Virus record (IMG/VR): IMGVR_UViG_3300021255_000094
Location: 2,896-66,895 of that record
Direction: 5' to 3' (one strand)
Origin: a virus
Lineage: Duplodnaviria; Caudoviricetes
Length of the DNA stretch: 64,000 bases
In this document: positions 16,851 to 45,693 of the stretch, in pieces
Position numbering within the stretch: the stretch's first letter is position 1
Layout of the letters: the number at the start of each line of letters is the position of its first letter
Translations under genes and position numbers: made by a program
Notes under the pieces: model-generated
Told to the model about the DNA's origin: nothing
Databases searched by the model: none
Seen by the model: the letters and a program-made list of their open reading frames with translations, nothing else

Positions 16851-16861
16851 GGAGATTGATA

Positions 16862-18412
16862 ATGGCACTATTTGAAATACCAACAAGAAATAATAGTCGA
16901 GAATCAGATAGTAAAATCATTAAGCAATCAAAGACAGTACACAAAGCTACCCCCTCTATAAAAGGGGGTAGTAGTTTACTAGAGAGAATATCCCAAGCGC
17001 AAGATTTAGTAAACCGAAAATTAAGTAAGTATAAAGATAAATATATCTTGATACAAAATGAGCAGATATTACATAATTATATAGATGAATGTATTAAGCA
17101 AGGAGTTATTAGTATAGATACAGAAACTACTGGACTTGACCCACTGTTAGATGATATAGCAGGAATATGTGTTTATACACCTAGTATGCCAGGAGCATAC
17201 ATACCTATCAATCACGTTAGCTATATAACAAATGAAAAGATTGCTAATCAATTAGATGTGGAATATATAAGAGCAGAGTTTGAACGTATTATTAAACCAC
17301 ATATAGATGTGATAATGTTTAATGCAAAGTTTGATATTAGAGTGTTGAGAAATAAAGTTGGTTTACATAATATTTACTGTACTTGGGATTGTTATTTAGC
17401 ACAGCGATTGCTTAATGAGAATGAACCTAGTAATGCTCTTAAAAAGTTGCATCAGAAATATGTGCTTAATGGTAAGGAAGATGCATTTACATTTGAAGAA
17501 CTATTCAAGGGAATACCATTTACAATGATACCTTTACAGACAGCAGTGCTATATGCAGGAAATGACCCAGTTATTACATATGAACTGTATGATTATCAAC
17601 GACAGTTTCTTAGGGAAGATTCTGATAGAGAAGATATGCGAAAATTGTATTGGGTATTGATGAATATAGAAATGCCTTGTGTTGATGCAGTATGTAATAT
17701 GGAAGATAATGGTGTACTCTTTGATATGCAGTATCAACAGATACTATCAGAGAAGTATAATAAGCTACTCACAGACAAGCTAGAAGCGTTTTATAAAGAG
17801 TTAAAGAAGTTTGATGATAAAATAGTCGAGTACAAAGCTAAAACGCAACATAACAAGCTAGATGAGCCTATAAATATAGCAAGCCCTACACAGCTAGCAA
17901 TATTGTTCTATGACATTATAGGTATAGAGGTTATAGATAAAAAGTCACCTAGAGGTACTGGAGTAGAAATATTAAAAAAGATGGATATGCCACTTGCAAA
18001 CACTATACTTGAATATAGAACGGTTGAAAAGCTAATCAGTACATATATTGATAAGTTACCTAATTGCGTAAACCCAAATGATGGAAGAATACATTGTAGC
18101 TTTAATCAATATGGTGCAGACACAGGAAGAATGTCAAGTAGTGACCCTAACTTACAGAATATACCATCACATAATAAAGACATACGAAAGATGTTTATAG
18201 CTTCTAATGAACCCCTTGATATTGTTGAAAGCAACAATAGTTTTACAGTAGATAGATGGATAGAAGTAAAAACATCTAATGGGTGGATTTATGCTGATAA
18301 AATAGAGGTTGGAGACAGCTTGGTTGTAGAAGAAAACGACACTCAATTAGAGATTATTGTTACCAAGATAGATAATCGTGTTGACAATAATCAGATAATA
18401 TTATATTATTAA
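16862..18412 (+). CDS. polA: Family A DNA polymerase N-terminal fragment (3'-5' exonuclease, thumb, start of palm) with Hint-like C-terminal tail
   Basis: SIDTETTGLD, FNAKFD, YAGND exonuclease motifs; GADTGRMSSSDPNLQNIP; stops before motif A. Confidence 0.9.
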   Translation: MALFEIPTRNNSRESDSKIIKQSKTVHKATPSIKGGSSLLERISQAQDLVNRKLSKYKDKYILIQNEQILHNYIDECIKQGVISIDTETTGLDPLLDDIAGICVYTPSMPGAYIPINHVSYITNEKIANQLDVEYIRAEFERIIKPHIDVIMFNAKFDIRVLRNKVGLHNIYCTWDCYLAQRLLNENEPSNALKKLHQKYVLNGKEDAFTFEELFKGIPFTMIPLQTAVLYAGNDPVITYELYDYQRQFLREDSDREDMRKLYWVLMNIEMPCVDAVCNMEDNGVLFDMQYQQILSEKYNKLLTDKLEAFYKELKKFDDKIVEYKAKTQHNKLDEPINIASPTQLAILFYDIIGIEVIDKKSPRGTGVEILKKMDMPLANTILEYRTVEKLISTYIDKLPNCVNPNDGRIHCSFNQYGADTGRMSSSDPNLQNIPSHNKDIRKMFIASNEPLDIVESNNSFTVDRWIEVKTSNGWIYADKIEVGDSLVVEENDTQLEIIVTKIDNRVDNNQIILYY

Positions 18413-18415
18413 GAT

Positions 18416-19123
18416 ATGATTATATATAAAGCAACAAACAAGATAAATGGTAAATGTTATATAGGGCAAACTCGACATTCTATTGAGTATCGTAAGCGCA
18501 GACATTTATCGTGTGCTAGGAAAGGAGTTAAAACTAATTTTTATAAAGCCATTCGTAAATATGGAGAAGATAATTTTGAATGGGAAATAATATGTAGCAC
18601 TAATGATAAACAGAAACTCAATGAACTAGAAACTTTCTATATAACAAAATATGACAGCATTAAAAATGGCTATAATATGATTGATGGCGGAGATAATAAT
18701 ATTATGGACATTGAGAGTGTTAAAACTAAACACGATAAAGTTATGCGTAGTTCCGAAGTGCGTAAAAAGATTTCAAATACAATGAAAAATAAGATTGCTA
18801 ATGGAGAATTTTTTACACCTGAACATAGAAAGAAGTTATCTGAAAAAGCAAAGGGTAATCATAATTTTGGCAGTGGTGATACACGCTCAATAGGATGTTA
18901 TTGTGTTCTTGAGGACGGCACAAAATATGAGTTTCATTCATATAGGGATGCTTGGAAGTGGTGGTTAACTATTGATAACCCATTTGATACAGATACAGAA
19001 TGTGTGTATCAGCGAAAAATAAAACAAAGTATAGAATGTGGATATTATACATATCATTATAATCGTAATAAAATTAAGTATGAATATCCAAAGTGGTTTA
19101 GAAAGGAGTGTGATGCTGAATGA
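18416..19123 (+). mobile_element. Free-standing GIY-YIG homing endonuclease gene between polymerase halves
   Basis: MIIYKATNKINGKCYIGQT, E..YI, GYN, NUMOD3-like TPEHRKKLSEKAKG. Confidence 0.9.
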
Positions 19124-20097
19124 AAAAGTTACTAGCTAGGAGAAACTATGTTCTTATGTCTAGTGACTATTCTTAGTCACAGCAAGAACCTAAATGTTTA
19201 GCGGCTTTGTGTAGAATGAATGGAGATTCACAGATGTATGATACATTTATGCAGGGTAAGGACTTGTATTCAGAGATAGCAAGTAAAGCATTTAATAAAC
19301 CTTATGAAGAGTGTCTTGAGTTTAATAAAGATGGAACTACTAATAAACAAGGTAAAGAACGTAGAACACAAGCTAAAAGTATTCTGTTAGGAGTGTTATA
19401 TGGCAGAGGTGTACCATCAATAGCAGAGCAGTTGAATTGTACAGTTGAAAAAGCACAAGCTATAAAAGACAGTGTATTCAGAGGTTTTCCAGCTATTAAG
19501 AAGTTTGAAAAAGATTCTTTAGCTATGGGCGAAGAGTTAGGTTATGTAACTACAATCTCAGGACGTAAGAGAAGATTACCAGCACTTCAATTAGATGAAT
19601 ATGAGTTTAAGTGGAAGAACGGTGTAGCTCCTGATAATGATTTATTAGACTTTGACTCAGATGCAGAGCAAGAGATTCCAGAGAGAACTATCAGAAAATA
19701 TCTTACAAAGTTACATAATTGTAGATTTAATGAGAAGCGCAAGATATTTGAGCAAGCGAATGAAGAGGGTATATGGATAGTAGATAATGGAGCAAAGATA
19801 GCAGAAGCAGTTAGACAGACTGTAAATGCACGTATTCAAGGAAGTGCGGCAGACCTAACAAAGCTTGCTATGATAGAGCTTAATAATAATCAGAAGCTAA
19901 AAGACTTAGGATTCAGACTACTTATACCAGTACACGATGAGATAATAGCAGAGTGTCCAGAAGAGAATGTCAAAGAATGTTCTAAATTACTAGCAGATAC
20001 AATGTCAAAAGCGGCGGAAAGGATACTAGAAATGCCTATTAAGTGTGATGTGACCATTACAAAAGAATGGTATGGAGAGGAGATAGTATATGAATAA
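19120..20097 (+). CDS. polA: Family A DNA polymerase C-terminal fragment; in-frame TAG at 19174-19176 inside motif A
   Basis: AAGGAG RBS and ATGA overlap at 19120; MKKLLARRNYVLMSSDYS*SQQEPK; motif B RTQAKSILLGVLYG; IQGSAADLTK; motif C VHDE. Confidence 0.85.
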
Positions 20098-28742: not shown

Positions 28743-29549
28743 ATGTATGGGTATATTTATAAAACAACAAATCTTGTAAATGGTAAAATCTATGTTGGTC
28801 AAAAAAAATCAAGCAAGTTTTTGGGTAATAAGTATTTAGGAAGTGGAAAATATTTAAAATGTGCAATTAAACATTATGGCGAGAATAGTTTTGCAGTTAG
28901 TTTAATATGTGTGGCTGAATCAAAAGATGAATTAGATGAACTTGAAAAATACTACATTAAAAAATTTAATGCCAATGACCACGATGTTGGATATAATATA
29001 GCACTCGGAGCAGTTGGTGGTGACACTTATACTAATTTATCTGATTATGATAAACAACTACGAAATGAGAGATATAGTAATTCTCGGAAAGCAAATATCA
29101 ACACTTATGTCGCTATACATAAAGGTAAAGAAAATAAGCGTATTGAAATATCCTTATTAGAATCATATTTACGAAATGGGTGGGAAAGAGGTAGAAGTAG
29201 TGATTGGCAGAAAAAATTGGACAGCTCACATAAAGGAATTAAACAGTCTGATGAATGGATTAAAAAGCGTGTAAATTCAGGATGGAAAAATAAATCACCT
29301 GATGAGTATGCAGAAATGGTGCAAAAACATAGAGAGTCCGCAATTCGTCAGATGGCAAATACTCCTAAAGATGAGCGAATAAAACGAGCAAGAAATGCCA
29401 ATAAGTTTAAGGGTCATAAATGCTGTTTTGTTAATAACGGAATTGAGATGCACTTTATTTATGAAGAGGATTTACAAGATTATCTCAATAATGGCTATGA
29501 ATTAGGTATGTTAAAGAGGAGTAGTAACAATGATAGTGAGAAGAAGTAA
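28743..29549 (+). mobile_element. GIY-YIG homing endonuclease gene
   Basis: MYGYIYKTTNLVNGKIYVGQK, YLGSG, EKYYI, GYNIA motifs. Confidence 0.9.
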
Positions 29550-35124: not shown

Positions 35125-35462
35125 TGGCTAGTAACATTAAGACAATAAAGAAGTTGCAATTAGCAATCAATACAAATTGTCCATTCAGAATACTATATAC
35201 AACTAATCAATTTTATTCAGTGGATAAACAAATGCCAGTAACAAAGTATTGTCTTAGGAAAGCTGATATAAACTATGATACACATAGAAGTGATAGCACG
35301 GAAATATTCAGCACTTATTCACAGTTGCAGATTATCTTATATCTTAGAGATTTGTGGTATACTTATTTAGGAAAAGAGATACCAACAGATAATGAATTAT
35401 GGGAGAATATTAAGGCGAGAGACGGAATAACTCTTGATACATATAAGGACGTGATAGCGTGA
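35124..35462 (+). CDS. Hypothetical protein
   Basis: ORF track; coupled to neighbours. Confidence 0.75.
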   Translation: MASNIKTIKKLQLAINTNCPFRILYTTNQFYSVDKQMPVTKYCLRKADINYDTHRSDSTEIFSTYSQLQIILYLRDLWYTYLGKEIPTDNELWENIKARDGITLDTYKDVIA

Positions 35463-36037
35463 GTGATAAAATACAGAGATTATCTAAGGATATAGTAAGT
35501 AAATATGAACTAGGTCAGAAGCCTAAAATAAATAGATATAAGACTAGCGCACAGCCTATAACACAAACTGAGACATATAAAACACAATATGTCACCCACA
35601 ATAAAGAGCCATTAACATTTAGGGAAGCAAGATTCATAGATGCATATATGGTTAATTATGACGGGGTAGAGGCAGTAGAGAAAGCTGGTTTTAAGGTCAA
35701 GGATAAAAGAGCTAAAGCTAGGTTATTATTATCTAAAGACTATATAGCAGATGAGATAGCATATAGAACGGAAATATATGCTAGTGAATGTATAGCAGAT
35801 AGGCAAGAGGTTTTAGAATACTTCACAGCAGTAATGCGTGGAGAAGTAAAAGACCAATTCGATTTAGATGCACCACTATCTGAAAGGACAGCCGCCGCAA
35901 GAGAGCTAAAGAAAGTCCTTATAGATGATGTAGAAAAAGGAAAGAATGTACAAGCGCAACAAGTAGTAGTAAATATAGATATGTCAAGAACAGAAGAAAC
36001 TGATAGTGTTGTTGATATACAGCAGTTGTCAGATTGA
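35459..36037 (+). CDS. terS: Terminase small subunit
   Basis: LTFREARFIDAY...A...AGF, ADRQEVLEYFTAVMRGE, AAARELKK. Confidence 0.85.
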   Translation: MSDKIQRLSKDIVSKYELGQKPKINRYKTSAQPITQTETYKTQYVTHNKEPLTFREARFIDAYMVNYDGVEAVEKAGFKVKDKRAKARLLLSKDYIADEIAYRTEIYASECIADRQEVLEYFTAVMRGEVKDQFDLDAPLSERTAAARELKKVLIDDVEKGKNVQAQQVVVNIDMSRTEETDSVVDIQQLSD

Positions 36038-36060
36038 TTTCATATTGTTTTACCTCTTAT

Positions 36061-36104
36061 TAAGGAAGAGTCAGGTGTTGAGTCAGCACTTGGCTCTTTT
36101 CTTA
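36061..36104 (+). terminator. Terminator hairpin after terS
   Basis: AAGGAAGAGTCAGGTGTTG / CAGCACTTGGCTCTTTTCTT. Confidence 0.75.
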
Positions 36105-36129
36105 TGGTGAAATATTTCCATACAGCATC

Positions 36130-36261
36130 GGAGTCATTAAAGTTGGTTGTAAATTTTTTTATTTAAAAAATAATAAGTATACTTATAGATAATCAAGCAA
36201 GCAATATTTAATTGAGAGCAAAATAATTTGTGGGTAGGGTTGGAGTCATTAAAGTTGGTTG
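36130..36261. repeat. Direct repeat GGAGTCATTAAAGTTGGTTG (two copies; others at 40937 and 33217)
   Basis: Exact 20-mers at 36130 and 36242. Confidence 0.9.
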
Positions 36262-36387
36262 CAAGTTCGCCCCCAGTCCGCCCCCTAGCCGGACCCCTAT
36301 TTTAAGATTTTATAAGATAGATCACTGTTTTCCACGGCTCGTCAAAAAAAACCAGTGCGAGAGTTGGGAAGGCGGGGGCGGGTTTTT

Positions 36388-36510
36388 TATATTCTAATAG
36401 TAGAAACGCCACAAAAAGCACTTTTTAAAATTGCGTAAAAACCGCTAAAATAAAGGGTTTAACGGCTTTTTATGGCGTGATTTTTAAAAAGTTTCTACTA
36501 TTAGAGTATA
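36388..36510. repeat. Long imperfect palindrome
   Basis: TATATTCTAATAGTAGAAAC / GTTTCTACTATTAGAGTATA outer arms with inner CTTTTTAAAA / TTTTAAAAAG. Confidence 0.8.
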
Positions 36511-36720
36511 AAAAGCGGGTTTTTGTGCTATATCAGAAAATTGATATTTTTGGCAGATATTTATTATTGAAATCAATTTGACAGAAGAGTAGACTATAAA
36601 TAAAAAAACGCTATGTTACGACATTATAAGTTTTGGATAGGTTAGGGTAACACTTAATCGAGTGGAAAATATCTGAGCTACTATTTAGAACTTATGGAAG
36701 TAGCAAGAAAGGAGAAAGAA

Positions 36721-36948
36721 ATGAAAGTAGAAAAGGTATTTGGAACAGTAACAGATGGCACAGGTTGGGAGAGAACAGTATTAAAAACAGATGGAACTTA
36801 TACACCATATGTAATAGTTACTGGTTATAACGGAAAGGACGGCTGGGCTTCAGCTTATGCTTATTTAGAGACAAAGCAGGATTTAGCCACTGTCATACTT
36901 CAGTTTATAGCTGATGGCGGAGAGTTCAAAGGTGAGTTGGTATTTTAG
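36721..36948 (+). CDS. Early-type hypothetical protein
   Basis: AAAGGAG RBS before ATG 36721. Confidence 0.7.
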   Translation: MKVEKVFGTVTDGTGWERTVLKTDGTYTPYVIVTGYNGKDGWASAYAYLETKQDLATVILQFIADGGEFKGELVF

Positions 36949-36964
36949 CAGAAAGGAAAAAGAT

Positions 36965-37156
36965 ATGGAAGCAAGAATTAAGGAGTACATTGATAACTGC
37001 AATATAAACCCAGGAGATTACAATATCAAGGATTTAGCAGTTGGTTTCATTTTAGGATTACACCCCTCTGAGTGTTCAGAAATGGACCCATACGATTTAG
37101 GTAACGATGGAATGTATGATGAGATATATAACCTGATAGCAGGTATTGTAAGATAA
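36965..37156 (+). CDS. Early-type hypothetical protein
   Basis: AAAGGA RBS before ATG 36965. Confidence 0.65.
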   Translation: MEARIKEYIDNCNINPGDYNIKDLAVGFILGLHPSECSEMDPYDLGNDGMYDEIYNLIAGIVR

Positions 37157-37173
37157 GAAAGGAGAACAAAATT

Positions 37174-37494
37174 ATGTTTATTAAGGGAAGTACAAAGAGA
37201 GGACAGCAGTTATTAGCTGGCGCAAGTTGGAGAAACTATGGTAACAAGATTTATGATGTTTATGGAAGACCATCATCGGCAAAGATAAAAGCTTGGGAAG
37301 CTTGTATGAGGGAATACGCAGAGTGTTCGGACAGAAGTAACTTTAGGATTACAAGTTTCAACTGCCAGCATTTCACAGTAGCTTGGGAATGCACAGTTGA
37401 ATATATGGACCCAAAGACCGGAGAGCTGACAATGGAGCGCATAACTCATATTGACACTGGATACAATACATATGAGGTACTACTGGACAAGTAG
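37174..37494 (+). CDS. Hypothetical protein
   Basis: AAAGGAG RBS; YGRPSSAKIKAWEAC motif. Confidence 0.75.
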   Translation: MFIKGSTKRGQQLLAGASWRNYGNKIYDVYGRPSSAKIKAWEACMREYAECSDRSNFRITSFNCQHFTVAWECTVEYMDPKTGELTMERITHIDTGYNTYEVLLDK

Positions 37495-37528
37495 TACCTC
37501 GCTCGAAAGGGCAGAAAGGAGAATTATT

Positions 37529-38005
37529 ATGGAAAAGAAAGTTATCAATAAGTTTGGAGAGCATTATCTACTCGGAGTAGATGAGTATGGCACAAAGTAT
37601 TATCTTGAAAAAGAGTCTTGGGACTGTGGCTGGTATTGGGGGCTTGGATACGTTCACACATTCACTAATAATAGGAGCCCACAGCTTTCTAGGGACTTAC
37701 AGTCACACCAGCATTTTAATGGAATGTTTTTCAATCAGAATAAATGCGGATATGATGCATTTAAAGAGTTCTTTGTGGAAACCCCTCTCACAGATGATGA
37801 GATTTGGGAGTTGGTTGATTTGATGAGGACAGCATATACTCTCAAGGAATCAGCAGAGCTGTTTGGAAGAGGCTATTCTCACTATACTAGCAGAGCAAAG
37901 TTGGATGTAGTAGTAAATGAAGATTATGTGGAAAATATCAATCATACTATGATACCAGCAGTTATGGATAGAGTTAGAGACATATTAACAAAGGAGGCTG
38001 AATAA
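37529..38005 (+). CDS. Conserved phage hypothetical protein
   Basis: SWDCGWYWGLGYV motif; RBS before ATG 37529. Confidence 0.75.
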   Translation: MEKKVINKFGEHYLLGVDEYGTKYYLEKESWDCGWYWGLGYVHTFTNNRSPQLSRDLQSHQHFNGMFFNQNKCGYDAFKEFFVETPLTDDEIWELVDLMRTAYTLKESAELFGRGYSHYTSRAKLDVVVNEDYVENINHTMIPAVMDRVRDILTKEAE

Positions 38006-38006
38006 T

Positions 38007-38270
38007 ATGAGAAAAGAAGAAAAGCTGGAGGTCTTGAAAATGGAATGCCGTGCCTACTACTCAGGCTGTGGCGGAATTGAGATAAAAGATATAATTCACG
38101 GAATTGAAACTTATGTGGTGTTTGTGGCTGGTGCTTGGACCAGCCAGCCCACAGCTCACAGAGCTAAGATATACTATACGGCGGAACCATATTTCAGGTA
38201 TAACGGATATACCATCAAACTGGACGAATGTATATTGTCTGAACGTACAATGTTTGGGGAGGTGATATAG
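38007..38270 (+). CDS. Hypothetical protein
   Basis: AAGGAGG RBS. Confidence 0.7.
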   Translation: MRKEEKLEVLKMECRAYYSGCGGIEIKDIIHGIETYVVFVAGAWTSQPTAHRAKIYYTAEPYFRYNGYTIKLDECILSERTMFGEVI

Positions 38271-38695
38271 TGAACAAGGAAACAAAGACAGTAAAGGTAC
38301 TTAATGGAAAGAAAACTATAACTCAAGCAACAACAGTTCGGGAAGCAGTCAAGTTGTTAATGTCAGATGTTTACACGGAAAAGGTAAATTTGGAAGATTC
38401 TAAACATAGGGTATCTAAACAGAATAGGGATTTGCATATACTTGATACTTATATATGCTGGCTGTGTAGTAGAGTTATTAGGAGATTAGATAAAAACATA
38501 GATCCGGAGAAAATAATTGAAGGACTCAAAGTCACAGATTGGATTAAGTATAGTTATGCTGGCAAAATATATTCTGGAGACACATTAAGGGAGATAATGT
38601 TTAACCCCCGTGAGGACCAGCTAACACTTTTAGCATTTCAAGCAGATTATATGGAAAGGGCAACTAATGTAGTAATAGATGTTATGGAGGGATAA
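38270..38695 (+). CDS. Hypothetical protein
   Basis: GGAGGTG RBS, GTG start. Confidence 0.7.
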   Translation: MNKETKTVKVLNGKKTITQATTVREAVKLLMSDVYTEKVNLEDSKHRVSKQNRDLHILDTYICWLCSRVIRRLDKNIDPEKIIEGLKVTDWIKYSYAGKIYSGDTLREIMFNPREDQLTLLAFQADYMERATNVVIDVMEG

Positions 38696-38801
38696 TATAT
38701 GTTAGGAATAATGTTTGTAACACTGGTTAGTTATATAGTATATAAGGAAAATATAATATCAAGAATTTTGGATAAATGTATAATAGAGGAGGATTAGAGC
38801 T

Positions 38802-39134
38802 ATGGGTATAAATGGAAAAAACTTAGATAGAGTGGTAAATGAGCAGATGATTGTGGAAAGAATATATAATGAAGCAGAAACTAAGGAAGAAATGTTGCTA
38901 GCCATAAATGCAGAACTACTGGCATTAGGAACTTTATATTCTAAGGATTATTTTGATATAACTATGTATGATAGAGTTAAAGATTTTCCTAATGCTGATT
39001 ATGTAGCAGTAGGACAAGTTGCAAAAACAGAAGAGGATTTTGATGATGACTATTATGGATATATAATACCTAAATCTTATATAAAGAATGGAGAATATAT
39101 AGTAGAATATAAGATTATCTGGAAGAATATGTAA
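38802..39134 (+). CDS. Hypothetical protein
   Basis: GAGGAGG RBS. Confidence 0.65.
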   Translation: MGINGKNLDRVVNEQMIVERIYNEAETKEEMLLAINAELLALGTLYSKDYFDITMYDRVKDFPNADYVAVGQVAKTEEDFDDDYYGYIIPKSYIKNGEYIVEYKIIWKNM

Positions 39135-39151
39135 TGACAGAATTTTAATAT

Positions 39152-39190
39152 AAAAGGCAGAATGTTGGTATTGCATTCCGCCTTTTATTT
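39152..39190 (+). terminator. Terminator hairpin
   Basis: AAAAGGCAGAATG / CATTCCGCCTTTT followed by ATTT. Confidence 0.7.
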
Positions 39191-39265
39191 TAGTACAATA
39201 AAATAAAAAATGTATATGGCACGACATTGAGCCACTTGGATGGCTCAGTCAGAAAGGAGCAAATT

Positions 39266-39499
39266 ATGGAAGCTATCATATTTAAGAATTGTGTAATGGG
39301 AATGGTAAAGGTTATAGAGACTGTGGAGTATCAAGAATTTGATGAAGATAATGGCTGGGAAGATATGGCAGTGTTGCCAGGAAACTACCCTTACCGAATC
39401 GGGTATATAAAAGGTTGGAAGCCCGTTCAGTTATTCATAGATGATGTGTGGGTTGATGCACCTTTTGAGATTATCAAACAAATAGAAAGGAGAATGTAA
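39266..39499 (+). CDS. Hypothetical protein
   Basis: AAAGGAG RBS before ATG 39266. Confidence 0.7.
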   Translation: MEAIIFKNCVMGMVKVIETVEYQEFDEDNGWEDMAVLPGNYPYRIGYIKGWKPVQLFIDDVWVDAPFEIIKQIERRM

Positions 39500-39500
39500 T

Positions 39501-39776
39501 ATGGAAACTTGGGTAGTTTATGATTTAGATGTTTGGGGAAATGAGGAAGATGGTTATGAGGTTAATGATTGGTGGGCAGTTGGAGAGCTGAGTTTCACAG
39601 ATATGGAAATACAAGATGATAAAGTCATTTTGGAAAAAATGAAAAAAGCTGGTTATCTCAAAACGTCAGATATGAGGAAGCTAGAAGTTGTGGCTGATTA
39701 TGGATTTATTCAGATAGTGGAAAGAAAGACTGGTAAATATTTATACAACTTAGAACTTAAAAAGGAGGGAAGATAA
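39501..39776 (+). CDS. Hypothetical protein with DVWGNEEDGYEVND motif
   Basis: Motif recognised from mobile-element proteins. Confidence 0.75.
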   Translation: METWVVYDLDVWGNEEDGYEVNDWWAVGELSFTDMEIQDDKVILEKMKKAGYLKTSDMRKLEVVADYGFIQIVERKTGKYLYNLELKKEGR

Positions 39777-39777
39777 T

Positions 39778-40005
39778 ATGCTGTATGTTAGAGATTTATC
39801 TAAAAATGAAAAGCTGGAACTTTACAAACAGATTAAAGGATTCTGTTTATGGGAAGGCAGTGCTAAAAAAGATTGTTTAGTTCACGTTAATATGGGAAAG
39901 ATAATGGACGAAAAAGTAAAGGATATAATTGATGTAATAATCAATTATGATATGGCAATAGATTATATGGAAGTTTATAAAGATTATAGTTATGGGAGGT
40001 ATTAA
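39778..40005 (+). CDS. Hypothetical protein
   Basis: AAGGAGG RBS. Confidence 0.65.
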   Translation: MLYVRDLSKNEKLELYKQIKGFCLWEGSAKKDCLVHVNMGKIMDEKVKDIIDVIINYDMAIDYMEVYKDYSYGRY

Positions 40006-40008
40006 GAT

Positions 40009-40191
40009 ATGAAAAAGGAATATAGAATAACTTATAATAATGGAAACCCACCACAGATAATAAGGGCGCACGATATATCTAAGGAAGAAAATGGGTATAT
40101 GCTGTGGAATGGTTTAGATGGAGGTGTTACATTTTTAAAAGGCACATATATTGAAAAAGTGGAATTGATTAAGTATGAGGAGGTAAGATAA
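40009..40191 (+). CDS. Hypothetical protein
   Basis: GGAGG RBS. Confidence 0.65.
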   Translation: MKKEYRITYNNGNPPQIIRAHDISKEENGYMLWNGLDGGVTFLKGTYIEKVELIKYEEVR

Positions 40192-40192
40192 T

Positions 40193-40867
40193 ATGACTAA
40201 TGAAAAGATGTTGGAAAAGCTAATAGCTATGAAGCTTGAGGAAGAAGATGTATATAGAAATGGTTACATTGTTTGGAAAGACCAGTACAATGAATTAGTT
40301 GAAGCACTAAAGGCAGATATTAGGGACGAGAATAATAAGAAAGCTGGAAAGTCAAATGTGGCAAAACTAGGAAAGGCAGTTCTTAAAAATGCCGTAAAGA
40401 TAACTGGTGGAAAGAATCAGAATACTAAAAGTATGATGAGATATGCACACACTAAGGATGGAGTACAGTATGTATTAGATAGTCATAGGATAGCTTGGTT
40501 TTATGAACCACTAGACTTGCCGGAATGGAATGAAAAAGATGGTGACTGGTATCAGATAGATAGATTAGTAACTATGGAAGTAGATGATACACCTTTAGAG
40601 TTACCAACTATTGGAGAGATAAAGGCAGAAATGAAAGCGAGAAAACTGGAGAAGTATCAGCACTTAATATATGTATTTGATAATGGATTAACTATAAACC
40701 CACAATATCTTTTAGATTATATGGAAGCTTTTCCGGATATGAAAGTATATAGAAGTGCTAGCAAGAATTATAAGAGAGAGCCATTGTGGATAGAGGCAGA
40801 AGAAGGAGGCGGTGTACTTCTACCAGTAAATGGAGAAGATAGAGAAAAAGGATTTTATGTAATATAA
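40193..40867 (+). CDS. Hypothetical protein with beta-clamp-domain-like C-terminus
   Basis: INPQYLLDYMEAF...EPLWIE...GVLLPV resembles DnaN C-terminal FNxxYLxD...P......LxxP pattern; weak call. Confidence 0.55.
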   Translation: MTNEKMLEKLIAMKLEEEDVYRNGYIVWKDQYNELVEALKADIRDENNKKAGKSNVAKLGKAVLKNAVKITGGKNQNTKSMMRYAHTKDGVQYVLDSHRIAWFYEPLDLPEWNEKDGDWYQIDRLVTMEVDDTPLELPTIGEIKAEMKARKLEKYQHLIYVFDNGLTINPQYLLDYMEAFPDMKVYRSASKNYKREPLWIEAEEGGGVLLPVNGEDREKGFYVI

Positions 40868-40875
40868 TTTTAATT

Positions 40876-40906
40876 AGCCGTAGGTGGAAACACTTACGGC
40901 TTTTTT
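40876..40906 (+). terminator. Intrinsic terminator
   Basis: AGCCGTAGGTG-GAAA-CACTTACGGCT followed by T-run. Confidence 0.9.
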
Positions 40907-41484
40907 GTTTGCTTAAAATAAAGTCCACATACACTCGGAGTCATTAAAGTTCGTTGCAAAAAAATCACCCCAGGAAACTTCTATCACCTGAACGAAATTT
41001 CCTGGGGTTCATCTTCTCCCTCTCCCTCTTGGTTTACATAATATTTTTTAGTTGTATGTGCTTAACGCCAGTTGTCGCAACGTGTGACGTGTTAAGCATA
41101 CTTAACGCCCGTTGCATATACTTATTGTGTGTTATAAAAGTCTCCATGTTTTAACTAGCGTTAAGGGGTTTTAACCCTTATACCCGTATGATACCACATC
41201 AGCCCGTTTTGTACACTGGCAAATTTGCCGAAAACTATACGCCCATTATAAAACACGTTTTGAGGGGGCTGTGAGGCGTTTTACGGCGTTTTATGGCGTT
41301 AGGGGTATAATTGCAAGGGTAAAGCCTAAAAACGCCTTAAAACGCAAATAAAGGCGGTTTACATAATGCATTTAAAAAGTTTCTTCTATTATATGCAAAA
41401 AAGAGGTGTATTTTTTGCCGTGCTGGTGTTTGTTGTCAAGTAAAAATACTTGACACCCTATACAAAGTCGGCTGATCTATGTTA

Positions 41485-41523
41485 AAATGACAGAATTTTG
41501 ATATAAATGACAGAATTTTGATA
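41485..41523. repeat. Tandem 19-mer AAATGACAGAATTTTGATA x2
   Basis: Copies at 41485 and 41505; near-copy at 39133. Confidence 0.85.
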
Positions 41524-41625
41524 CTTTGACTTTCATACCAGTGCGAGTCTTTGTGCAAGTTGCACAACAAAAACCACTTTTTATTGTATGCTTCCCACAA
41601 AAAGTAAAAAAATAGCAAAAAGTCG

Positions 41626-41654
41626 TTGCATATACATTTACATTTATGTATTAT
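41626..41654 (+). promoter_or_regulatory. Probable promoter
   Basis: TTGCAT(41626)-17 nt-TATTAT(41649). Confidence 0.55.
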
Positions 41655-41727
41655 GGTATTGACAAGTTGTGCTTGTCACTTGCCACTACTGGCAAGTAAC
41701 TACATACAGAAAAGAGGTAAACAAGAT

Positions 41728-41913
41728 ATGAAAAGATACACGGCAGAACAAAACAACAAAGCAATAACACAACTTAACCGCTTAACGATAGCAAAGATAA
41801 CAAGCGGTAAAAGCGTGAGTAAAAAAGGTTATACGCCTAACCAGCTTTTAAACATTCAGCGACTAGCAAACAGACTGAATCACGGCAAAGAGTTTGTGAT
41901 AGCTTATAGATAA
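41728..41913 (+). CDS. Small basic hypothetical protein
   Basis: GAGGT RBS before ATG 41728. Confidence 0.6.
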   Translation: MKRYTAEQNNKAITQLNRLTIAKITSGKSVSKKGYTPNQLLNIQRLANRLNHGKEFVIAYR

Positions 41914-41928
41914 AAAGGGGGTAACAAT

Positions 41929-42111
41929 ATGGTAACAAAAATAGTATTACAATTTGATACAAAAAATAAAGAGTTATTATCATTTATATCAAATAATAAC
42001 AAGGCAGACTTTAACACAATATATTGTGAAGATGACACAAAAGATACAAAAGAAACCATTTATGAATTATATGATAAAATAATTCACTTATTAGAGAATA
42101 GGGGGGTATGA
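41929..42111 (+). CDS. Hypothetical protein
   Basis: G-rich RBS. Confidence 0.6.
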   Translation: MVTKIVLQFDTKNKELLSFISNNNKADFNTIYCEDDTKDTKETIYELYDKIIHLLENRGV

Positions 42112-42114
42112 AAT

Positions 42115-42558
42115 ATGTATTTTGATAAAATAGATTATACAATTTTTGAGATAGCAAACAAAAACGGCTTTACACCAATATTTACACCTTATATTGATGA
42201 AGACGAAGAGCAAATTCTTATAGGCTGGCAAAAGATAGAAAACAATACTTTGTATGTTGTGTCTTATGTAGAGCTTATGAGAGAATTCACGAACGATAAT
42301 TGTTTAGCCGATAATGTGCAAGCGTGGTTTGATTGTGCGTTAAAAATAAGCTGGCAAGACACAAAAAAGAGTTATGTATCAATTACGTACTTTGTGGGCT
42401 TTGATAGCATAACTTTTACAGTATACAGCGGGGGCGGGCTAGATGAATTTTTAACAATGTACACTAACCACTATGTAATAGATATAGAGGCACAATACAA
42501 AGTGGCACTTATTAGAGCGGTAGAGCAAATAGTAGCAAGGCAAATACTAAAACAATAA
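42115..42558 (+). CDS. Hypothetical protein
   Basis: G-rich RBS. Confidence 0.65.
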   Translation: MYFDKIDYTIFEIANKNGFTPIFTPYIDEDEEQILIGWQKIENNTLYVVSYVELMREFTNDNCLADNVQAWFDCALKISWQDTKKSYVSITYFVGFDSITFTVYSGGGLDEFLTMYTNHYVIDIEAQYKVALIRAVEQIVARQILKQ

Positions 42559-42606
42559 ACCAGTAAACCAAACAAAACTATAATAAAAGAAGAGAGGTAT
42601 AAGACA

Positions 42607-43200
42607 ATGAAAACAACAGCAAACACCACAAAAAACAGCACAAAAACAAGCGCAAACAAGCACAATGTTTCACGTGAAACATTAAAAAATAATATGAAAG
42701 TAGAGGGTAAAACAATGAACAAGAACAACACAAAAACAGTAGCAGAGATAATAGCAGATATTCAAAAAATGCCTAAGTATGACGGCACTAATTTTAAAGA
42801 GATTAGCAAGGGCGCAAAGATTAGAAAACGCACTAATGAAGATTTACAGCGACAGCGTGAGAGCGTGGCAAGAGATAGAGGGGGCAAGCTGGCAGACGTA
42901 GATATTAAAGCCGTAAAGGGTGCGACAGACTTTGACAAGCTGGTAACACTTGTTACCACCTATTATACAGACATAGCAACCGCCACAAAAAAGGCTGTAC
43001 GCTTTAAGTTTATAGATGGTAAAATAGTTTGTTGGCGTAGAGTAAATAATATAAGAGTATATACAGATAATACAGACTTGTTAGGGCTTGACTGGGTAGA
43101 AGATAACCACGAAATCGGCTACACTCACAGCGCATACACCAGTTACCTAACACTTGCAAAACTAATCACAGCGAACGCAACACCAGTAGAAAAAGCTTAA
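42607..43200 (+). CDS. Hypothetical protein (start may be ATG 42715)
   Basis: ORF track; two candidate RBS/ATG pairs. Confidence 0.65.
   Translation: MKTTANTTKNSTKTSANKHNVSRETLKNNMKVEGKTMNKNNTKTVAEIIADIQKMPKYDGTNFKEISKGAKIRKRTNEDLQRQRESVARDRGGKLADVDIKAVKGATDFDKLVTLVTTYYTDIATATKKAVRFKFIDGKIVCWRRVNNIRVYTDNTDLLGLDWVEDNHEIGYTHSAYTSYLTLAKLITANATPVEKA
42666..42681. promoter_or_regulatory. parS site 1
   Basis: TGTTTCACGTGAAACA, the Firmicutes ParB/Spo0J consensus. Confidence 0.85.
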
Positions 43201-43201
43201 A

Positions 43202-43217
43202 TGTTTCACGTGAAACA
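43202..43217. promoter_or_regulatory. parS site 2
   Basis: TGTTTCACGTGAAACA within a 22-bp perfect palindrome. Confidence 0.85.
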
Positions 43218-43221
43218 TTTT

Positions 43222-43260
43222 ACCCCCGTCCACACGGCAAAAAGTGGACGGGGGGTTTTT
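43222..43260 (+). terminator. Intrinsic terminator
   Basis: CCCCCGTCCAC / GTGGACGGGGG followed by T-run. Confidence 0.85.
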
Positions 43261-43369
43261 GTTGGCTGGCACAGAGAGAGAACAAAAAAATACTGAGTAC
43301 CCCTCTATCGTAATGCCCCAAAATTTCTAATAATATTGATGTCTTGTATTGTCGGATTTCTGATGAGAA

Positions 43370-43385
43370 TGTTTCACGTGAAACG
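43370..43385. promoter_or_regulatory. parS site 3 (one mismatch)
   Basis: TGTTTCACGTGAAACG. Confidence 0.75.
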
Positions 43386-43402
43386 TGTTTAGCAAGTTTG
43401 AA

Positions 43403-43418
43403 TGTTTCACGTGAAACA
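43403..43418. promoter_or_regulatory. parS site 4
   Basis: TGTTTCACGTGAAACA flanked by TAGCAAG / CTTGCTA. Confidence 0.85.
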
Positions 43419-43471
43419 TCTTGCTAGAGTTTACATAACGTGTTATATTATGTTTATGGGAGAGTAAGAAG

Positions 43472-44773
43472 ATGATAAATATTAGGATGCAAGATTTGAT
43501 AATACCCGCCTATGACGAGGTATTTAAAGATATTATAGAGCATAAGCATACTCATTACTGCTTAAAGGGTGGAAGAGGTTCTACTAAGAGTTCTTTTGTA
43601 GGCGGTATTGCTATTCCGCTTTTAGTTATGCAGAATCCAGATGTTAATGCAGTGTGCTTTCGTAAAGTAGGCAATACTGTGCAGAATAGTATATATTCTC
43701 AGATTACTTGGGGAATATATCAGATGGGCTTAGAAAGTCTCTTTCATATTCCTAAGACTTATAGTAACCCTATTATATACAAACCTACGGGGCAAAAGAT
43801 TTTCTTTATGGGAATGGATGACCCTAATAAAGTAAAGAGTATTAAGGTAGAGCGTGGGTATATAGGCATTACTTGGTGGGAAGAGTTAGACCAGTTTGCT
43901 GGAGAATCTGAGTTGCGTAAAGTATTGCAGTCTACAATGAGAGGTGGAGAGTTATTTTGGGATTTTCGTACTTTTAACCCTCCTATTTCTATTGATAATT
44001 GGGCTAATGAATATGCAGAGGAAGCTTTTCTGAGAGAAGATACTCTTGTAGTGTCGAACACTTATTTAGATGTTCCGGAGAGCTGGCTTGGTAGACCGTT
44101 TATTGAAGAGGCTGAGTATTTAAAGAAACTTAACCCTAGAGCTTATCAACACGAATATATGGGAGAAGCTATTGGAACTGGTGGTGGCGTCTTTCCTAAT
44201 GCTTGCGATTTGGATATGCAACAGCAAGTACCAGTATATGATTATAATGGCAATATACTTGAATATACAGAAATGTGGAAGACTTTTGATAAGATACATA
44301 ATGGCATAGACTGGGGTTTTGCTATGGACCCATTCAGATTTGTGCGTATGCATTATGATGCTAAGAAGCTTGATTTATATATTTTCAAAGAGTTTTCAAC
44401 AGTAGCTACACGAAATCAGATTGTGTTTGATATTCTGTATAAAGAGAAAAAGCTAATAGGTATGGACGAGTTAGTAACAGCAGATTCAGCAGAGCCTAAA
44501 TCTATTGCAGACTTTAAAGCTTATGGAGCGTATATACGAGGCGCAGTAAAAGGACCTGATTCTGTGCGTTATGGAATTAAATGGCTACAAGGTCTTAATC
44601 ATATCTATATAGACAGAAGAATGTGTCCTAAGACTTATAAAGAATTTACTCATTATGAGTATTTACAAGATAAAGATGGAAACTTTATTAGTGATTATCC
44701 AGACGAGGACAATCACAGTATCGACAGCGTTAGGTATGCGATGGAGAAATTTTACAGTAGACGAGGTAATTAG
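43472..44773 (+). CDS. terL: Terminase large subunit (PBSX-like)
   Basis: GGRGSTKS Walker A, WWEELDQ Walker B, TFNPP, GIDWGF, NHSIDSVRY. Confidence 0.93.
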   Translation: MINIRMQDLIIPAYDEVFKDIIEHKHTHYCLKGGRGSTKSSFVGGIAIPLLVMQNPDVNAVCFRKVGNTVQNSIYSQITWGIYQMGLESLFHIPKTYSNPIIYKPTGQKIFFMGMDDPNKVKSIKVERGYIGITWWEELDQFAGESELRKVLQSTMRGGELFWDFRTFNPPISIDNWANEYAEEAFLREDTLVVSNTYLDVPESWLGRPFIEEAEYLKKLNPRAYQHEYMGEAIGTGGGVFPNACDLDMQQQVPVYDYNGNILEYTEMWKTFDKIHNGIDWGFAMDPFRFVRMHYDAKKLDLYIFKEFSTVATRNQIVFDILYKEKKLIGMDELVTADSAEPKSIADFKAYGAYIRGAVKGPDSVRYGIKWLQGLNHIYIDRRMCPKTYKEFTHYEYLQDKDGNFISDYPDEDNHSIDSVRYAMEKFYSRRGN

Positions 44774-44776
44774 TAT

Positions 44777-45064
44777 ATGGCAAATTCAGCTATGGGACTT
44801 AAAAGAAGAAGGAACTTGGCGTATAAGCAAGAAGATAATTCTTATACTTATAGTAATGGTGGCGGAAGCAGTAACAGACGAGGAGACCGCTATAATACTG
44901 GGGATAATACGCTTAAAAAGACTAAGGGTATTGATAAGGGAACTCTGCAAAGCACTACAAAAGAGAAGCGTGGAAGAAAGAAAGCCGATGCTCCTAGAGG
45001 TAAGAAAAAGCAGAAAACTAAGTATGAACGTACTAAGCGTACTACAAAGAAAGGAAGAGACTAA
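44777..45064 (+). CDS. Highly basic low-complexity protein
   Basis: Lys/Arg-rich; GAGGT RBS; stop overlaps next ATG. Confidence 0.6.
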   Translation: MANSAMGLKRRRNLAYKQEDNSYTYSNGGGSSNRRGDRYNTGDNTLKKTKGIDKGTLQSTTKEKRGRKKADAPRGKKKQKTKYERTKRTTKKGRD

Positions 45065-45693
45065 TGCCACAGTTATTAAATACATCTGTGCGTGAGTATG
45101 TAGGAGTTGGAGAATATGACATACCAGCAATTCAACCAGTATTTGAGTTACCTAACATAGATAACTGGCTTGAGTTTGAAAAGGCAAAGAAGTTAAGAAA
45201 CAAACCTCCTAAAACTGGCGTACATTTTTTTGAGTATGATTTTAAGTTTGAGTGTGTGTGGAATTTTCCGGATAGGTATGCTGATGTATTGTCGGCTTAT
45301 GATGCTATAATCACTCCAGATTTTTCATACTATATTGATTTCCCTAAGGCTCTCAGAGTTTTTAACAAGTATCGTATGCATTGGATTTCAGCATATTGGC
45401 AAGAACGTGGGCTTACAGTAATACCACTAATACGATATGGGTTAGAAGAAGATTGGGATTGGTGCTTCGATGGTTATCCTAAGCATAGCATTGTAGCTAT
45501 ATCAACAGTAGGTGGCGGTAAGTCAGATGAAATGATTGATATAGGTATGCGTGGTTATGAAGAAATGCTGAATAGATTAGAGCCTAAGGAAGTAATCATT
45601 TACACAAACAGCTTTGATTATTATCCTGGAAATGTACGATACATAAAGTACGATATAGATAAGCACATACAAGAGGAGGAAGATGATGATTAG
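45064..45693 (+). CDS. DUF4417-like protein
   Basis: GVHFFEYDFKFECVWN, ITPDFSYY, CFDGYPKHSIVAIST motifs. Confidence 0.75.
   Translation: MPQLLNTSVREYVGVGEYDIPAIQPVFELPNIDNWLEFEKAKKLRNKPPKTGVHFFEYDFKFECVWNFPDRYADVLSAYDAIITPDFSYYIDFPKALRVFNKYRMHWISAYWQERGLTVIPLIRYGLEEDWDWCFDGYPKHSIVAISTVGGGKSDEMIDIGMRGYEEMLNRLEPKEVIIYTNSFDYYPGNVRYIKYDIDKHIQEEEDDD

Follow-up and report, generated by a model that had tools for sequence, protein, structure and literature searches.

Why would a phage carry, just upstream of its large terminase gene, four copies of the chromosomal-type parS site and no parB? The question is raised by a locus in a Caudoviricetes genome, the 66,895-bp IMG/VR record IMGVR_UViG_3300021255_000094, of which bases 2896-66895 were analysed as one stretch of 64,000 nt (the window). 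The record has direct terminal repeats, with a 107-bp overlap of its ends, and is rated 100% complete. Between 42666 and 43418 of the window the perfect sequence TGTTTCACGTGAAACA occurs three times and a 15/16 copy, TGTTTCACGTGAAACG, once. The 16-bp inverted-repeat consensus of the ParB/Spo0J site (TGTTNCACGTGAAACA) is thus matched at 16/16 positions at three sites and at 15/16 at the fourth. Chance expectation is 0.03 sites, and four sites were reached in 0 of 100 shuffles. There is no further site with two or fewer mismatches elsewhere in the 64-kb window and none with one mismatch or fewer elsewhere in the complete 66,895-bp genome. The original prediction had placed three sites at 42666, 43202 and 43403 and a one-mismatch copy at 43370, just upstream of the terL promoter; all four lie exactly there, and the promoter follows parS-4 almost immediately (Table 1). 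It had also described these as parS sites with no parB in the window. This holds beyond the window: six-frame searches of the complete genome gave no match to ParB_N (PF02195), HTH_ParB (PF17762) or the ParA-type ATPase domain AAA_31 (PF13614).

What kind of phage is this? Every open reading frame of the whole genome that was judged a likely gene is on the + strand. The left two thirds carry the genes of an autonomous replisome, comprising an SNF2 helicase, a DnaD-like initiator, a DnaC-like loader, DnaB, primase, PolA (split by a GIY-YIG gene), a beta clamp, RecA and a three-subunit clamp loader. The gene that interrupts PolA (16856-20097) is a GIY-YIG homing-endonuclease gene at 18416-19123; another GIY-YIG gene is found at 28743-29549. 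An SPP1-type portal and a 1381-aa putative tape-measure open reading frame mark the genome as siphovirus-type. Tyrosine integrases and serine recombinases or resolvases gave no match in the six-frame search of the complete genome, and no plasmid-type replication control, repressor or lysogeny module was seen there besides one sub-threshold HTH_3 match in a 68-aa open reading frame. Because ParA, ParB and integrase matches are absent, the replisome is the phage's own and the genes lie on one strand, the phage looks virulent and without partition proteins of its own. The host, placed by metagenomic binning alone, is likely a member of the class Clostridia (rumen).

The packaging genes and the features around them are collected in Table 1. 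On the 3' side, terL is followed in order by a very basic 95-aa open reading frame, a DUF4417 gene, the SPP1-type portal gene and a minor capsid protein gene. The 95-aa frame (44777-45064), between terL and the DUF4417 gene, is extremely basic and of low complexity, and is weakly conserved (41-72% identity in relatives). A DUF4417 homologue also adjoins terL in Roseburia phage Jekyll, and in Streptococcus phage IPP53 the homologue forms the C-terminal part of a longer protein annotated as 'ParB-like protein'. DUF4417 as a link to ParB was considered and not borne out: IPP53 and Jekyll carry no parS in the 10-12 kb around the DUF4417 gene and terL.

Table 1. Positions, in the window, of the parS sites and of the features around them.
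Feature	Position	Strand	Evidence or remark
Small terminase gene terS, 7.4 kb upstream of terL	35459-36037	+	Terminase_2 (PF03592), 52.5 bits; phrog_51, 1.3e-16
Hypervariable island of small open reading frames between terS and terL	36038-43200	+	Comparison with relatives; parS cluster at the terL-proximal end
ORFan gene between parS-1 and parS-2	42607-43200	+	No Pfam or PHROG match, no ParB-like fold, absent from most relatives
parS-1, perfect 16-bp palindrome TGTTTCACGTGAAACA	42666-42681	.	Within the low-complexity N-terminal tail of the ORFan, or in its 5' leader with a start at 42715
parS-2, perfect	43202-43217	.	2 bp past the ORFan stop codon, directly before the terminator hairpin
Intrinsic terminator ending the island transcription unit	43223-43262	+	11-bp G+C stem, U run; z = -3.9
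CTTGTATTGTC motif upstream of the late promoter	43343-43353	+	Kept in 8/12 relatives; sole copy in promoter context in the window
parS-3, 15/16, TGTTTCACGTGAAACG, last base G	43370-43385	.	Same position and A16G change in L005, L006 and L176
parS-4, perfect	43403-43418	.	Separated by 2 bp from the -35 box of the late promoter; aligns with parS of L005, L006, L012, L013 and L176
Late promoter TTGCTA-17-(TG)TATATT, for terL and downstream genes	43421-43449	+	Hexamers and TG extension kept in 12/12 aligned relatives
Large terminase gene terL	43472-44773	+	Terminase_3 and RNaseH-like nuclease domain
DUF4417 gene, stand-alone, in the packaging module between terL and the portal gene	45064-45693	+	Context only

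The island between terS and terL is 5-8 kb long in relatives, and almost no open reading frames are shared there despite terL identities of 84-97%. This pattern points to a hot spot for accessory genes within the packaging module. The island of the window has repeats of its own. The 20-mer GGAGTCATTAAAGTTSGTTG occurs three times (36130-36149, 36242-36261 and 40937-40956; 0 expected), and the segment 36457-36518 is partly duplicated at 41278-41406; both look like regulatory repeats. An Rfam scan of 35.9-43.6 kb gave nothing credible.

Two of the parS sites flank the ORFan, whose homologues are metagenomic only. Its C-terminal domain is modelled as alpha-beta5-alpha with moderate confidence (pLDDT ~80-88), and comparison of this model with the PDB gave no significant match (best Foldseek E 0.5). 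Could the ORFan product itself be a binder of the sites? That candidate was rejected, as the protein has no family match and no significant PDB match and is absent from parS-keeping relatives. In translation, parS-1 reads NVSRETL within the tail of the protein (42607-42714), and this is kept in six of eight homologues; the DNA site thus appears to constrain the translated low-complexity tail of the ORFan family. Next, parS-3 and parS-4 lie 33 bp apart in the 270-bp spacer that precedes terL. A hairpin similar to the terminator of Table 1, with a G+C-rich stem of different sequence and a T run, is present at the same place in L005, L006, L012 and L016. Upstream of the late promoter two alternative conserved motifs are found, CTTGTATTGTC in eight relatives (often in two copies) and TTGCACAA in four; each may be the site of a different type of late regulator.

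Are the parS sites maintained in related phages? When IMG/VR was searched with terL, 13 close relatives with terL identities of 72-97% were found, and two more were reached through ORFan homologues. Two to four parS-type sites are kept in each of the 11 relatives whose sequence extends ~1.9 kb or more upstream of terL; the relatives without sites (L007, L010, L014 and L015) are contigs that stop 0.6-1.9 kb upstream of terL. The parS-bearing relatives are L005, L006, L008, L009, L012, L013, L016, L017, L175 and L176, and one site is present in the more distant L025. Their sites all lie within ~2.2 kb upstream of terL, though the surrounding open reading frames share no similarity. Four relatives are near-complete (62-67 kb), and these have no parS anywhere else in the genome. 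Whole-genome comparison with the same four shows the replication module, terS (63-98% identity) and everything from terL onward to be conserved.

An alignment of the terL leaders shows a promoter that is invariant at key positions and, in several relatives, an aligned promoter-proximal pair of parS sites. Sites within ~150 bp of the terL start are found in the window and in L005, L006, L008, L012, L013, L175 and L176; in L016, L017 and L009 the sites lie 0.46-2.2 kb upstream and none is at the promoter. Each genome has a single variant of the site: TTTC throughout the window, TTCC/GGAA at four of four sites in L005 and CATG at three of three in L013. Because the sites are kept in 11/11 informative relatives while their flanks turn over, the comparison indicates that they are under selection.

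Do candidate hosts carry the same sequences? Here the host assignment comes from metagenomic binning of relatives, and both the completeness of the MAGs and the binning are uncertain. The Lachnospiraceae MAG RUG145, the bin of a 66,480-bp relative (L016/L022), has a ParB gene with TGTTTCACGTGAAACA and TGTTCCACGTGAAACA ~1 kb upstream. Lachnospiraceae genomes have each of the variants TTTC, TTCC and CATG next to parB or soj. Of 201 Lachnospiraceae genomes sampled, 8 contain the CATG form, and two of these have it immediately upstream of soj-spo0J. Such variants are equal to natural chromosomal parS, which argues against a chance resemblance, and the agreement fits a phage site that would track the preferences of host ParB. 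Clusters of three to eight CATG copies are also present in two Lachnospiraceae genomes, at L172 (G164:C10:162289-162490) and L174 (G231:C113), with no ParB detected in the short loci retrieved; the clusters could represent additional orphan arrays, or centromeres of plasmids or phages.

Which protein, then, reads the sites on the phage? Most probably it is host ParB, because the ORFan is absent from most relatives that keep parS, the open reading frames next to terL in ten relatives match no family and the phage has no ParB-type HTH. That host ParB binds the phage sites is considered likely. From binding one may go a step further. The cluster is interpreted as a cis-acting loading platform for host chromosomal ParB that aids the positioning and inheritance of unpackaged genomes, a reading to which a probability of about 0.5 is given; binding, spreading and a benefit for segregation or persistence are what we infer. 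ParB (Spo0J-type) dimers would nucleate on the four-site cluster, close into CTP-dependent clamps and spread over neighbouring DNA, such that one partition complex would be built per phage genome. Host ParA/Soj and SMC would then treat this complex like the chromosomal origin region. When lytic growth is delayed, as might happen in slow-growing rumen cells in a carrier state or pseudolysogeny, the phage would benefit because genomes not yet packaged take their position and their inheritance from the host chromosome. ParB on the cluster might also, as a side effect, damp the abutting late promoter for as long as it is bound there. Persistence as an episome or in a carrier state is plausible, and the late operon may plausibly be silenced. 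That the phage has a stable episomal stage is conjecture, because the phage looks fully virulent and no plasmid-type replication control or repressor is seen.

One feature counts against ParB loading for inheritance as the whole explanation: the location is always near the late promoter, and a pure centromere role does not require this. Could the sites act on the promoter itself? ParB at parS-3 and parS-4, together with clamps sliding from the upstream sites, might repress or time the terL-portal-head operon, which implies that late expression would depend on host ParB or its CTP state. The geometry is suggestive, with the centres of the two sites near -78 and -45 from the predicted transcription start and the latter site almost touching the -35 box. 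Promoter-adjacent sites recur in seven relatives, and in all relatives the sites are confined to the ~2.2 kb that precede the late promoter, with none in the rest of the 62-67 kb. Three relatives (L016, L017 and L009) nevertheless lack a promoter-adjacent site, so the exact operator geometry is not conserved, and the separate conserved motif, CTTGTATTGTC or TTGCACAA, is more likely to be the site of a late regulator. ParB spreading on the Bacillus subtilis chromosome barely affects transcription, which also counts against such control. Promoter control is compatible with ParB loading for inheritance, but as an explanation of the cluster it is rather doubtful. Replicating phage DNA might, alternatively, multiply parS and act as a decoy, drawing host ParB, and with it the loading of SMC, off the chromosome origin by titration and so disturbing host segregation, replication control or division to the advantage of the phage. 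Four strong sites on a genome with its own replisome would suit a decoy, and orphan parS is common on phages without integrase; one or two sites are enough in some relatives, though, which fits a cis role better than titration and makes the decoy very unlikely.

Two further accounts concern sporulation and packaging. The Bacillus phages phi29 and Nf exploit the Spo0J of their host by way of parS (PMC2731898), so the precedent on which the original prediction drew is real. Among virulent phages it is the one use of host-type parS that experiments have established (PMC2731898). In entrapment of the phi29 type, Spo0J-parS pulls phage DNA into the forespore, and Spo0A, acting at boxes in early and late promoters, suppresses the lytic cycle; the likely host class, Clostridia, includes spore formers. 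The phi29 model requires Spo0A boxes and a sporulating host (PMC2731898). In the present phage 0A boxes (TGTCGAA) number two against 2.97 expected, both inside late genes and neither near a promoter. The MAGs in which parS-bearing relatives were binned (G006 and G009), which may be incomplete or misbinned, show no Spo0A_C or SpoIVA, and the more distant relatives binned with SpoIVA-positive MAGs (G007 and G008) have no parS with one mismatch or fewer. Spore entrapment is therefore improbable, and less likely than carrier-state inheritance. The original prediction had proposed that host ParB is hijacked for segregation or for entry into spores; recruitment of ParB is favoured by the conserved sites and by host ParB with identical variants, whereas the lack of 0A-box enrichment and of Spo0A_C and SpoIVA in the MAGs speaks against the spore route. 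Might the palindromes be read by a phage protein instead, as operators or packaging signals for terS/pac or a late regulator, their identity with parS being coincidental or convergent? They do lie in the terminase neighbourhood, and one variant per genome is what a dedicated, co-evolving binder would lead one to expect. Yet the 16/16 identity with the chromosomal consensus is repeated, the variants equal natural host parS beside parB, and the phage genome contains no ParB-type HTH. The terS gene is conserved but 6.6 kb from the nearest parS, and the adjacent open reading frames are not conserved; in ten relatives, the frames directly preceding terL gave no Pfam or PHROG match and only faint mutual BLAST links. 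Among 17 other parS-bearing IMG/VR records of at least 25 kb with a detectable terL, parS lies within 2.5 kb of terL in four, approximately the chance level. A phage-encoded reader is the least credible of the accounts weighed here. As for packaging more narrowly, a pac site is expected in or next to its own terS and to be phage-specific; here terS is distant and the sequence equals the host consensus. A role of ParB-parS as a terS substitute or pac signal is rejected on account of the conserved Terminase_2 terS and of the lack of general parS-terL linkage in the 17 records.

How widespread are orphan parS sites of this kind? The perfect 16-mer occurs in more than 119 IMG/VR stretches (a minimum), several of them with clusters. 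A survey was made of 35 records of at least 25 kb with a perfect parS, among the matches listed; it covered parS-bearing records and, for integrases, the tyrosine type. ParB_N is absent from 31 of these 35 listed records and a tyrosine integrase from 32; of the 15 records with a completeness of 90% or more, 13 lack ParB_N. The survey is suggestive of the same orphan-parS trick recurring in many phages that have neither ParB nor a tyrosine integrase. A bolder proposal, possible but put forward tentatively, is that orphan host parS represents a widespread strategy of non-integrating phages, also in non-sporulating hosts, that loads host ParB, and via ParB also ParA and SMC, on the phage DNA and so provides a heritable, ParB-dependent carrier state, and that in the phage described here ParB also gates the late promoter, tying the timing of lysis to host segregation or CTP status.

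What would host ParB loading mean? If host ParB loads on these sites, an apparently lytic phage of rumen or gut Clostridia could be carried along by dividing cells in a way that is cheap and gene-free. The divide between lytic and temperate phages, as used in the interpretation of viromes and in the choice of therapeutic phages, would then be blurred. The lineage offers a natural experiment, in which the sites stay, the surroundings are replaced and the variants appear to shift in step with host parS. Recurrence in the survey makes a general test of ParB hijacking feasible.

How does the cluster compare with known systems? A full-text search, of incomplete coverage, turned up phi29/Nf and SGI1 but no description of an orphan parS cluster conserved in any other lineage of phages. 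What is new here is an orphan parS cluster in a phage lineage unrelated to phi29/Nf, in a host that probably does not sporulate. The chromosomal parS/ParB(Spo0J)/SMC system of Firmicutes has the identical 16-bp sequence and the same natural variants, and its sites are likewise clustered a few hundred base pairs apart, as seen beside parB in the MAGs examined; those sites are near oriC, whereas the present ones are on a virus with no adjacent parAB. The P1 parABS and N15 sopABC systems are similar in having a centromere-like site on a phage genome that could aid extrachromosomal inheritance. They differ in having their own ParA and ParB, private centromeres, plasmid replication and immunity, none of which was found in this phage. 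SGI1, which hijacks a plasmid's ParABS via an orphan parS (PMC10954446), is likewise a mobile element with a cis site only that borrows the partition proteins of another replicon. There the lender is an IncC helper plasmid; here a phage would borrow from the chromosome of its host. With phi29 and Nf the likeness extends to a phage without an integrase or repressor module and without its own ParA/ParB, to several copies of host parS and to host ParB as the presumed reader. The differences are a 19-kb protein-primed podovirus as against a 67-kb siphovirus-type genome with a DnaB/PolA/clamp replisome, sites spread over the genome as against one tight cluster at the late promoter in the terS-terL island, and, in the present case, no Spo0A-box signature and candidate host MAGs in which neither Spo0A nor SpoIVA was seen. 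Of the known systems, that of phi29 and Nf is the closest, and SGI1 is a conceptual parallel.
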